Part shown: positions 9,140 through 31,444 of the stretch, one piece after another
Layout: every line of letters begins with the position of its first letter
Position numbering within the stretch: position 1 is the stretch's first letter
Assembly (NCBI GenBank): GCA_043800255.1
Contig: JAZDNF010000008.1
Coordinates: 32,001 to 96,000 of the forward strand
Source of the DNA: Candidatus Altiarchaeota archaeon
GTDB taxonomy: Archaea; Altiarchaeota; Altiarchaeia; IMC4; SCGC-AAA252-I15
DNA length: 64,000 nucleotides
Reading direction: 5' to 3'
Translations under genes and position numbers: made by a program
Notes under the pieces: model-generated
Database searches by the model: none
Told to the model about the DNA's origin: nothing
The model's input: the letters and a program-made list of their open reading frames with translations, nothing else

Positions 9140-9667
9140 ATGAAGGAGAAAACAAAAAACGTGGTAGTGCATCTTGGGGATGTTGGACCCGATGACTCGG
9201 CTAAAGGTAGAGAGTATACTGAGAGGTTCCCAGACATTATGTTCATTGGAATAGACATTGAGGAGCGTCTTGAAAAATTCGAACTCGACAATTATAGGCA
9301 TCTCACTGCCGATTTTATAGGCGGGCTTAAAACCTTAGAGGACAACTCCATAACATTAATCTCCTCTAATCTGGCTTTAGGCTACTATGATGTGGCAGGT
9401 AATATGATCAAAGCCAAAGAAGCGGCAGACTATACTATGCGAGTAGCTCAATTAGCCCACGATAAACTAAAGAGGGGTGGGAAACTGCTGGTAGTAGTGG
9501 CTGAAGATCAGGCTGATATAATAAAGGAAGCCGTCATTAAAGGATCCTTTCATCCTGAAGATGTCAAAACACGCCCCCTAGAACCAAACGAGTATAAACG
9601 AACACACTGGATAAAGGATTACGTCAAAGATAACATTCCCCTCTGTCAGATAACTGCGACAAAATAA
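9140..9667 (+). CDS. Divergent class I SAM-methyltransferase-like protein
   Basis: Degenerate motif I, FIGID, LKRGGKL; AT-rich segment next to tRNA-Ile. Confidence 0.55.
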   Translation: MKEKTKNVVVHLGDVGPDDSAKGREYTERFPDIMFIGIDIEERLEKFELDNYRHLTADFIGGLKTLEDNSITLISSNLALGYYDVAGNMIKAKEAADYTMRVAQLAHDKLKRGGKLLVVVAEDQADIIKEAVIKGSFHPEDVKTRPLEPNEYKRTHWIKDYVKDNIPLCQITATK

Positions 9668-9794
9668 AACGTTTTAAAGTTTGGGGCCAGTGACTTATTG
9701 GAGTCTGAAATCTAGCTATTATTGTGAAACAACCGCGTAAGAAGAAGTTAGGTGTAGGATTTTTACCTTCGTTTTTAATACATAAGAGATGGGA

Positions 9795-9965
9795 TGGGCC
9801 TGCGGAGATTTCTTAACCGCGGGGGCTCCCGCCCCCTCAGTTTCAAGTTCTTCCTGAACCCCCGAAACGAATTGCGAGGTCTCTCGACCTCGCGAATGCA
9901 TTATCACGCTCAAGGGGACTGAGCGAAGCGAAGTCGCCGCCGCATGTAAACTGGGCGTGACAGTT
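9795..9965. repeat. Hairpin cassette bounded by 17-bp direct repeat of tRNA-Ile 3' end
   Basis: TGGGCCTGCGGAGATTT at 9795-9811 and 9966-9982; interior is a series of hairpins. Confidence 0.8.
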
Positions 9966-10128
9966 TGGGCCTGCGGAGATTTGAACTCCGGACCTCTCGA
10001 TTTCAGAAGCGACGCGTAATTCGCGTCCTGCACCTCCCGTCTTTTTTCTTTGGGGGTGAAGCACCTTTCTTTTCTAAAGAAAGGGGCTCTATCAGTCGAG
10101 TGCTCTAACCAGTCTGAGCCACAGGCCC
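9966..10128 (-). tRNA. tRNA-Ile(GAT) with 88-nt intron at 37/38 (10002-10089)
   Basis: GGGCCTG/CAGGCCC acceptor, CTCGA/TCGAG anticodon stem, GTTCAAATC; BHB with one U.U mismatch. Confidence 0.95.
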
Positions 10129-10173
10129 TTGTAAGCAAAAGGTGAGTTAATCTTAGTGATTTAATACTAAAAT

Positions 10174-10436
10174 AAGTTTTTCCTAAAAGAAAAAGGCTTG
10201 TCGAGTGCTCAGCGCGAGAAGCTCTGCTTCTCGGCTCGCCAAAATCGCAGTGGCGATTTTGCGCGTAACCAGTCTGAGCCACAGGCCCTTGTTTATTCTT
10301 TAGTTATTATGGGCCATTAAGCGACCGAAAGGGAGCGCATATGGCTCAACCGAGACATCCGTCTCGGTGAGCACGAAGACGAATGTCTTCGTTGCTCCTT
10401 TGGCCAGCCTTTAAAAAGGCTGTGAGCCACAGGCCC
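10174..10436 (-). repeat. Two truncated tandem copies of tRNA-Ile 5' part with inserted hairpin modules
   Basis: 10200-10210 plus 10266-10292 identical to 10095-10132, split by a 55-nt insert; 10423-10436 is a 14-nt copy. Confidence 0.9.
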
Positions 10437-10482
10437 GTGAAAATTTGAGGTTATTTTTAGTGTTTTTAAGATAAAAAATAGT

Positions 10483-10821
10483 CTACTTAATCCATTTTTG
10501 TCTGGCTTTTTTGATGGTGCCGCTGACTCCTATGATGTGGGGGAGTACGGGCGTCTTGTTTATCTCTGTTATTGTTACTATTGAGGCTCTCACTGGGTCG
10601 ACTGTCTTATGGTTTGTTTTTAGTATTCCAATGTTCTTGTTCTCATCCCATTCTATGAGCCAGAGGCTGGTTGTGGCGGCCTGCACCTCCCCCAGAAGCC
10701 TCTGAGTTGCGTTCAACAGCGCGTGTAGGACGTCCTTCTCATTCAGCCTAACGCTGGATTCTACCTTCAAGACCAGGTACCGGTTCCGTTCCCTCAATGT
10801 TGGGGGGTAGCGTGCTGCCAT
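10483..10821 (-). CDS. rnp2: RNase P protein component 2 (Pop5/Rpp14)
   Basis: PPTLRERNRY ... GVSGTIKKA; start placed at MAARY. Confidence 0.9.
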   Translation of the reverse strand: MAARYPPTLRERNRYLVLKVESSVRLNEKDVLHALLNATQRLLGEVQAATTSLWLIEWDENKNIGILKTNHKTVDPVRASIVTITEINKTPVLPHIIGVSGTIKKARQKWIK

Positions 10822-31259: not shown

Positions 31260-31444
31260 TGCCGAAGGCGGGACTCGAACCCGCGACCTCCAGATAACTC
31301 AGCGTTATCGTGAAATCTTCCCTAGCCTTTGGCTACGGTGCCCGGCCCCAAAATTTTTTCTTTGGGGGTGAAGCACCTTTCTTTTCATAAAAGAAAGGGG
31401 CTCGCTTATGAGTCTGGCACTCTGCGCTACTGAGCTACTTCGGC
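31260..31444 (-). tRNA. tRNA-Met(CAT), elongator type, with 111-nt intron at 37/38 (31296-31406)
   Basis: GCCGAAG/CTTCGGC acceptor, CCAGA/TCTGG stem, GGTTCGAGTCC, perfect BHB; D-loop lacks GG. Confidence 0.9.

Follow-up and report, generated by a model that had tools for sequence, protein, structure and literature searches.

A double-hairpin DNA module that splits a dead tRNA-Ile gene copy in an altiarchaeote belongs to a conserved family of one archaeal order

Interrupted and split archaeal tRNA genes are usually accounted for by large integrating plasmids and viruses. The D-loop and the T-loop are also sites of non-canonical archaeal introns, for which the bulge-helix-bulge (BHB) rule requires a 4-bp helix and 3-nucleotide (nt) bulges, and for the Thermoproteales non-canonical tRNA introns and 'intron transposition' have been described. 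Folded DNA is further known from the attC sites of integrons, imperfect palindromes of ∼55-60 nt with extrahelical bases in which structure rather than sequence is conserved, and from the ends of IS200/IS605 elements, where guide bases lie between the hairpin foot and the element end. Bacterial repetitive extragenic palindromic (REP) sequences form dimers of head-to-head imperfect palindromes, the partners of which are sometimes only 1-5 bp apart (PMC3733652). For the tRNA-Thr gene of Caldiarchaeum, an integrase-borne exchange of the 5' part has been described, which changed the intron content and left a 5' fragment behind (PMC3293823). Here we analyzed a stretch of 64,000 nt, referred to as the window, from Candidatus Altiarchaeota archaeon (assembly GCA_043800255.1, contig JAZDNF010000008.1, positions 32,001 to 96,000 of the forward strand), in which an insert of 55 nt made up of two hairpins splits a dead copy of the 5' part of a tRNA-Ile gene. 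It represents one member of a DNA module family whose structure is under constraint and conserved in one uncultured archaeal order.

The tRNA-Ile locus and its filled and empty alleles

All features of the locus lie on the minus strand, and coordinates are given as window positions. The live tRNA-Ile(GAU) gene and its 4-nt leader ACAA occupy 9966..10132. The gene body runs from 10128 to 9966 and consists of two exons (∼10090-10128 and 9966-10001) and an 88-nt intron at the canonical position 37/38 (∼10002-10089). Default ARAGORN and Rfam both miss the gene; with the 88 nt taken out, ARAGORN reports a 75-nt tRNA-Ile(GAT), and homology to other introns supports the assignment. A dead copy of its 5' part lies upstream, 67 nt from the ACAA leader. 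Part A of this copy (10266..10292) is identical to 10106-10132 at 27/27 positions by BLAST. It comprises the leader and the first 23 nt of tRNA-Ile, with the acceptor 5' strand, the D-stem 5' strand and the D-loop, and constitutes the upstream copy of a 27-nt direct repeat. Part B (10200..10210) holds the D-stem 3' strand, position 26, the anticodon-stem 5' strand and position 32 in 11 nt identical to 10095-10105 of the intact gene. Together the two parts amount to 38 nt, that is the leader and the first 34 nt of the gene, and end after canonical position 32; BLAST gives matches of 27/27 and 25/25 between dead copy and intact gene. In the intact gene parts A and B are contiguous, in the dead copy they are 55 nt apart.

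This arrangement had been described in an initial annotation of the window, and our comparison bears it out: the exact 38-nt repeat from the leader through position 32 is split 27+11 by 55 nt, the intact gene represents the uninterrupted site, and the copy stops before the anticodon at a T-rich hairpin and T-run (10176-10199). Only 5 nt lie between position 32 and this T-run, which resembles the trailers of other tRNA genes in the genome. The hairpin and T-run (∼10176-10199) form the first portion of the 67-nt spacer (10133..10199) and are followed by an A/T-rich stretch, which is predicted to carry the promoter of the live gene. The sequence upstream of part A is homologous to the spacer in front of tRNA(CAT), at the second locus of an element named segA (see below). 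Part A therefore stands at the original position of the gene.

The module itself (10211..10265) starts and ends without a single target base lost or doubled. Hairpin I (∼10237-10265) has a 3-bp foot, one bulged base and an A4/T4 stem, and hairpin II (∼10211-10236) a 3-bp foot and one bulged base on its 3' side. The DNA fold has an energy of -22.3 kcal/mol (z = -5.2), and none of 200 shuffled sequences folded as well, so that the two hairpins of the initial annotation stand. A search of 9500-10700 against Rfam with E values up to 10 gave no match, and BLAST of the 55-nt insert did not reveal a second copy in this genome.

We compared the locus with contigs of three groundwater metagenome DNA runs from one study, which may include the sample of origin; only contigs were used, and no RNA run was among those listed as containing the stretch. 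One contig (X2) aligns to 10090-10289, differing by one base and one gap, and contains the dead copy with the module, which is thus present in an independent assembly. The same contig joins 10289 to 10438 and thereby lacks the 148 nt of segA. A second contig (X3, ∼95% identical), from a related strain, runs directly from 10105 into 10266, and 27 letters at the join can be assigned to either side. An uninterrupted tRNA-Ile gene, and thus the empty site, stands there in place of the dead copy. Accordingly, the natural insertion or deletion (indel) measures 160 nt (10106..10265; the 27-nt repeat, the 67-nt spacer, the 11 nt of part B and the module), not 55 nt as initially proposed. It is bounded by an exact 27-nt direct repeat of the kind by which a tRNA attachment site is recognized, with 133 nt inserted between the repeats and no gene inside. 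Also missing from X3 is a part of segA, namely 10346-10396, where a double hairpin of a second kind takes up 51 nt. Double hairpins therefore come and go between strains.

As in the integration described for Caldiarchaeum and in SSV- and pNOB8-type integration, a tRNA-terminus repeat bounds the insert and a dead 5' fragment is found upstream of a reconstituted gene (PMC3293823). Fragment and live gene differ by inserted sequence in both cases, and here this difference is polymorphic in a natural population. Unlike the 1.8 kb with a recombinase reported there (PMC3293823), the insertion studied here comprises 133-160 nt without a gene; moreover, the extra sequence is located in the dead fragment instead of the live gene and is not a spliceable intron.

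A module family within one archaeal order

A covariance model built from 18 copies was used to search 61 genomes of the class, 49 of which belong to the order. It matched 29 of the 61, all of them within the order. Further copies, for which the initial annotation had suggested a search, thus exist. By family, matches were obtained for 16/20 genomes of f1 in addition to the genome studied here, 2/2 of f3, 1/1 each of f4, f6 and f7, and 7/22 of f5. The copy at the tRNA-Ile locus matches the R1 model with an E value of 2.9e-8. The exact motif is restricted to 11 of the 49 order genomes, with none further in the class (11/61), and one of its 14 places was judged to be due to chance. In one relative (G020), two tandem partial copies of tRNA-Asn carry a homologous insert at the same D-loop position and are followed by an intact gene. 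The genome studied here (G000) has, besides the copy in the window, a weak match (C16:63801-63854, E 1e-3) just behind a 5S rRNA gene (G000:C16:63600-64050, minus strand). A 15-nt copy of the 5S 3' end was noticed 249 nt further on.

True copies were also present at at least six loci on metagenome contigs (L159 and L243, which have the same sequence, L175, L210, L241 and L255), accepted by eye after a stricter filter among the matches listed. Three further candidates (L201, L232 and L249) do not form hairpins and were discarded. On viral contigs the strict pattern gave no match, and none of the four matches of a looser pattern passed the model. The protein genes around 12 module loci have no member common to all, and only one syntenic pair was observed. 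We found no description of such a module in the open-access literature searched.

The module is ∼50-57 nt long. Its two imperfect palindromes abut, and both have a 3-bp G+C foot as well as a single extrahelical base, located 5' in the first hairpin but 3' in the second. This framework is under structural constraint. In a MAFFT alignment of 56 copies, which had been picked with a model of the same structure, the 12 framework pairs are 98.2% paired and 10 of them show compensatory changes; none of 500 shuffles reached this value, and sliding the partners against each other reduced pairing to 27-61%. The stem sequences differ nearly everywhere across copies, yet pair. We also considered a three-way fold with a closing stem formed by the first and last 5 bases. 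This stem is 75.6% paired and 108 of 500 shuffles were as good, and since it thus performs no better than shuffled sequence, two separate hairpins are preferred.

The surroundings of the copies follow a pattern. With the module removed in silico from 58 copies, ARAGORN placed none in an exon of the sole complete tRNA. A tRNA was predicted across the junction in four cases, three of them in tRNA introns without duplication and one in a second full-length tRNA-Ser beside an intact one, and another 29 of the 58 copies have an ARAGORN-predicted tRNA within 250 nt. A hand tally of 54 copies assigned 25-26 to the T-loop (59/60), 6 to the D-loop end, 3-5 to a conserved intron and 1 to position 38/39, the rest being in other or undefined contexts. 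The intron-borne copies are embedded in sequence common to many introns of the order. Around tRNA-borne modules, one flanking fragment typically comprises 12-27 nt of the outer gene end and the opposite one 10-22 nt, with the live gene 3-94 nt away. Ribosomal RNA is affected as well: at the metagenome locus L241 (631-775), from an A/T-rich archaeon, the module splits a 34-nt duplicate of the 16S rRNA 3' end that includes the anti-Shine-Dalgarno region and is located 29 nt downstream of the real 16S 3' end.

Wherever the locus also contained an uninterrupted version of the site (20 of 20 cases), the two flanks adjoin exactly, which agrees with the precise insertion without target duplication originally proposed for the tRNA-Ile copy. 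Orientation is equally strict. T-loop copies are antisense to the tRNA (17/17 with an ARAGORN-called neighbor) and D-loop copies sense (5/5), while the side of the module that faces the gene varies, as does its polarity relative to the transcript. Because the orientation is fixed to the target and either polarity to the transcript occurs, the module appears to act on DNA and not as an RNA intron. By hand tally, 44 of 54 copies are preceded by A and 34 of 54 are followed by T. The sequence before the insert is otherwise variable (GGGA, GAGA, GTGA, GGTA, GATA, GCGT and others), and no conserved target word of 4-5 nt is apparent. Identical stems were found at different tRNAs in different genera (G011, G002), and at the same site in two species of one genus the modules have unrelated stems. 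One locus (L309) contains a nested or tandem module.

Measured against described elements, the module shares with REP dimers, bacterial interspersed mosaic elements (BIMEs) and REP doublets forming hairpins (REPINs) the short paired palindromes, the lack of coding capacity, the kept structure with varying stems and the occasional location inside other palindromes. In contrast to REPINs, it is archaeal, occurs in one to ∼10 instead of hundreds of copies per genome, has no GTAG or CGTC tag, is lodged in tRNA- or rRNA-derived sequence instead of being randomly extragenic, and is not accompanied by a RAYT/Y1 protein here. It resembles the Thermoproteales introns in that related short sequences appear at the D-, T- and anticodon loops of different tRNAs; unlike them, it has no BHB, is antisense in the T-loop class and never resides in a live exon. 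With attC it has in common the extrahelical bases, the conservation of structure and, in many copies, the insertion next to a TT-rich core, but there are no cassette arrays, no integron integrase above cut-off and two hairpins instead of one. As in a miniature inverted-repeat transposable element (MITE), the ends are inverted (at least 5 nt), but there is no target duplication, and this genome holds one strong and one weak copy. By these comparisons, the module does not fit the REP/REPIN sequences, the BHB introns, the split tRNAs, the MITEs or the integrase-borne tRNA fragments of the Caldiarchaeum type.

Other terminal duplications and tRNA introns of the genome

Short duplications of RNA gene ends are not restricted to the dead tRNA-Ile copy. 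At 13 or more loci of this genome, 14-27 nt from the terminus of a tRNA or 5S gene recur 64-250 nt away. Relative to the RNA gene, these repeats either begin between -4 and +2 or stop between 73 and +7. A trailer-like hairpin, an A/T-rich stretch and the second kind of double hairpin are often found in the intervening DNA. Three such insertions (repeats of 14, 27 and 17 nt) are located at tRNA-Ile, and two of them, those with the 14- and 17-nt repeats, had escaped the initial annotation.

The first of these is segA (10290..10437, minus strand), which comprises a 14-nt repeat of the tRNA 5' end (10423-10436), the second-kind double hairpin at 10346-10396 and an A/T-rich spacer. It has a second copy of 97.7% identity at C11:96780-96908, just outside the window and beside tRNA(CAT). 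segA can thus be described as a structured element of ∼130 nt, the first 14 nt of which equal the 5' end of the downstream tRNA. A G9/A9 difference in its head tracks the neighboring tRNA at both loci, and since the 14-nt head of the second segA matches tRNA(CAT) and not tRNA-Ile, the duplication was made locally. The other insertion, segD (9795..9965, minus strand), is located downstream of the live tRNA-Ile gene and ends in a 17-nt copy of the tRNA 3' end (9795-9811). Its inner part recurs in several relatives and holds strings resembling C- and D-boxes.

Ten further repeat loci (14-22 nt, 64-250 nt apart) were found in G000 at C5:18400/18511, C8:132918/133092, C8:133190/133327, C8:212263/212369, C11:73426/73490, C12:11632/11757, C13:14637/14797, C13:42518/42646, C16:32908/33090 and C16:63637/63886. 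They have small structured insertions between the repeats, several with the conserved second-kind double hairpin.

A sequence of ∼48 nt is common to the canonical introns of five different tRNA genes of the genome, including tRNA-Ile (window 10002-10089 and ∼31354-31403, both minus strand; G000 C5:18328-18375, C5:9339-9387 and C2:12604-12650). It matches many tRNA introns across the order and hosts the double-hairpin module in relatives. The tRNA loci at 9966-10128 and 31260-31444 of the window are both invisible to default ARAGORN and to Rfam (E values up to 10), and standard tRNA finders likewise overlook several tRNAs neighboring tRNA-Ile. In this lineage, tRNA counts from automatic annotation will be too low, and dead copies can be mistaken for the halves of split tRNAs.

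Possible routes of insertion and their implications

A search for enzymes that could move the module yielded little. The Y1 profile PF01797 has no match in G000, although controls matched. Across the order, 10 of the 29 genomes with a module and 7 of the 20 without one encode Y1 proteins, a similar frequency, and one genome with 17 Y1 matches has no module. The sole tyrosine recombinase of the genome is encoded at locus L270 (G000:C7:191024-192073, minus strand), on another contig than the tRNA-Ile locus, and scores 94 bits against a cut-off of 220 with the XerA/integron integrase model. Its protein is 89-91% identical in other genera (G015, G002 and G012) and 75% identical in another family (G027), and the homologs adjoin tRNA genes in two of those genomes. 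Given this near-identity across genera and the location beside tRNA genes, the L270 protein is probably the integrase of a horizontally moving element. A recombinase of this type is found in only 16 of the 49 order genomes and is missing from many module-positive ones. No integrase is present at the tRNA-Ile locus itself, where the neighboring genes encode Pop5, a glycosyltransferase, MgtE and an aldolase.

On balance we lean towards the interpretation that the module is a small non-autonomous hairpin element with precise entry into loop-coding DNA, whose survival is limited to redundant copies. It would move on its own and would probably be handled as folded single-stranded DNA by an enzyme acting in trans. 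On insertion, such an element would leave its borders free of duplication and keep a fixed orientation to the target. The usual target would be DNA that codes for the T-loop, at 59/60 on the antisense strand, or for the D-loop, at 21/22 on the sense strand. Since insertion into the exon of a live single-copy tRNA gene would be lethal, survivors would be seen only in redundant places, namely tRNA introns and the dead end fragments of tRNA or rRNA genes. At the locus studied here, the target would have been the promoter-proximal dead copy of the first 34 nt of tRNA-Ile, leaving the live gene 67 nt downstream untouched; the dead copy would accordingly have come first and the module second.

Several observations weigh against this interpretation. 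Dead copies with a module are longer (31-38 nt) than the module-free ones in this genome (14-22 nt), and as little as 3-11 nt can separate the module-bearing fragment from the live gene, neither of which is readily reconciled with chance insertion into a copy already present. No allele that has the dead copy without the module was seen in the contigs. The order of the two steps is therefore not established, and the 160-nt indel fits a one-step event equally well. One strong and one weak copy in this genome are few for an active element, and no candidate enzyme emerged, as neither a Y1/HUH transposase nor TnpB, Cas1 or a reverse transcriptase was found in the 93%-complete genome. Finally, the copies behind the covariation analysis are biased towards the structure with which they were picked, even though the alignment itself is that of MAFFT, and the relatives are draft metagenome bins, so that absences among them are weak evidence.

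The main competing explanation, for which we see a smaller yet appreciable probability, is a one-step integration. According to it, a unit of ∼75-185 nt made up of a tRNA-like arm, the module, a second arm and a spacer recombines with a tRNA gene in the outer arm (here the 27-nt repeat) with the help of a tyrosine recombinase supplied in trans. The module would then be the center of the attachment site, and only crossovers in the outer arm would leave a live gene. The natural indel, with its 160 nt and the 27-nt repeat as its boundary, has exactly this makeup. Local tRNA sequence adjoins the module on both sides in most copies (arm A 12-27 nt, arm B 10-22 nt), and spacers can be as short as 3 nt. 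In two metagenome copies located at different tRNAs the module is followed by the same sequence, and because this tail is common to both it would belong to the element. Some arms derive from another tRNA than the neighboring one (G027 L306, G022 L307 and G027 L282), and tandem units occur in G018 and G020. The tyrosine recombinase described above, itself mobile to judge from its 89-91% identity across genera and its position beside tRNA genes elsewhere, is a conceivable source of the activity, and the exchange of a tRNA 5' part in Caldiarchaeum provides a precedent (PMC3293823). Nevertheless, there are only housekeeping genes and no integrase near the locus, the recombinase is confined to 16/49 genomes and absent from many with a module, and the three intron-borne and several non-tRNA copies have neither tRNA arms nor duplication. 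A double-stranded circle of 75-185 bp is also physically implausible, so that a single-stranded form would be needed, and the arms, matching the local tRNA as they do, would have to be picked up afresh at every new site. One-step integration explains the local arms and short spacers better than the independent movement of the module, and the intron-borne or arm-less copies worse. We consider it unlikely, though worth stating, that the module acts as a kind of staple, a protein-less mobile DNA of two hairpins flanked by short arms. Its single strand would anneal to the loop-coding DNA of a stable-RNA gene, two arm duplexes and two hairpins would form a four-way junction, and junction-resolving and repair enzymes of the host would turn this into an insertion with a local duplication. 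If true, this would explain the local tRNA flanks, the lack of a transposase and the dead copies beside tRNA, 5S and 16S genes, and it would offer a concrete route by which archaeal tRNA genes gain insertions and fragments.

The remaining explanations fare less well. HUH (Y1) transposition, proposed in the initial annotation, would make the module a minimal hairpin element of the IS200/IS605 or REP/REPIN type, mobilized by a TnpA or RAYT protein encoded elsewhere. Two hairpins with extrahelical bases, a precise and strand-specific insertion without target duplication and the preference for A before (44/54) and T after the insert (34/54) would fit, and bacterial REP dimers are a close formal analog (PMC3733652). 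We nonetheless regard this proposal as improbable and did not retain it: no Y1 gene was found here, Y1 genes do not co-occur with the module (10/29 positive versus 7/20 negative genomes, and none in the genome with 17 Y1 matches), and neither TnpB nor a conserved target word of 4-5 nt was detected. The feet of the hairpins are moreover the first and last 3 bases of the insert, and as the hairpins reach the ends there is no room for guide sequences. A functional small RNA or DNA site under selection, for example a tRNA-end decoy for integrases or nucleases or a signal for leader or trailer processing, seems more doubtful still. It would agree with a structure that is kept across the order while the sequence turns over, and with arms that are identical to the live gene even where orthologous tRNAs differ (G010 versus G002), but not with a location that shifts between tRNAs, a patchy presence even within a genus, the presence and absence between close strains and the occurrence of either polarity to transcription. 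Least probable, in our view, is that the dead copy is a 5' half of a split tRNA or contains a non-canonical intron, the 55 nt being spliced and the product joined to a 3' half elsewhere. In its favor, the piece retains the original spacer on the promoter side, a terminator-like T-run comes after it, and the lineage is rich in tRNA introns, including long ones. Against this, hand reading according to the BHB rule detected no BHB at the borders, in line with the initial annotation: base pairing of the last 4 nt of exon with the 4 nt of intron demanded by the rule is not possible, and the fold gives two hairpins instead. The T-loop class is antisense to the tRNA in 17/17 cases, the pieces end at varied points with no common trailer, and a 16S 3'-end fragment has the same module. 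BLAST of the intact gene against the whole assembly revealed no free tRNA-Ile 3' half, the other matches being tRNA(CAT) at 89% identity and the 17-nt end copy only, and an intact tRNA-Ile(GAU) gene is located just 67 nt away.

Whichever route was taken, the locus adds a much smaller player to the large plasmids and viruses usually invoked, namely a structure-defined element of ∼55 nt with a strict orientation rule at D- and T-loops and with both filled and empty alleles. It thereby provides a testable system for asking which enzyme moves hairpin DNA in these archaea, whether such inserts seed non-canonical introns, and why the ends of stable-RNA genes gather short duplications. The finding thus bears on the old question of how archaeal tRNA genes became interrupted, split and flanked by fragments.
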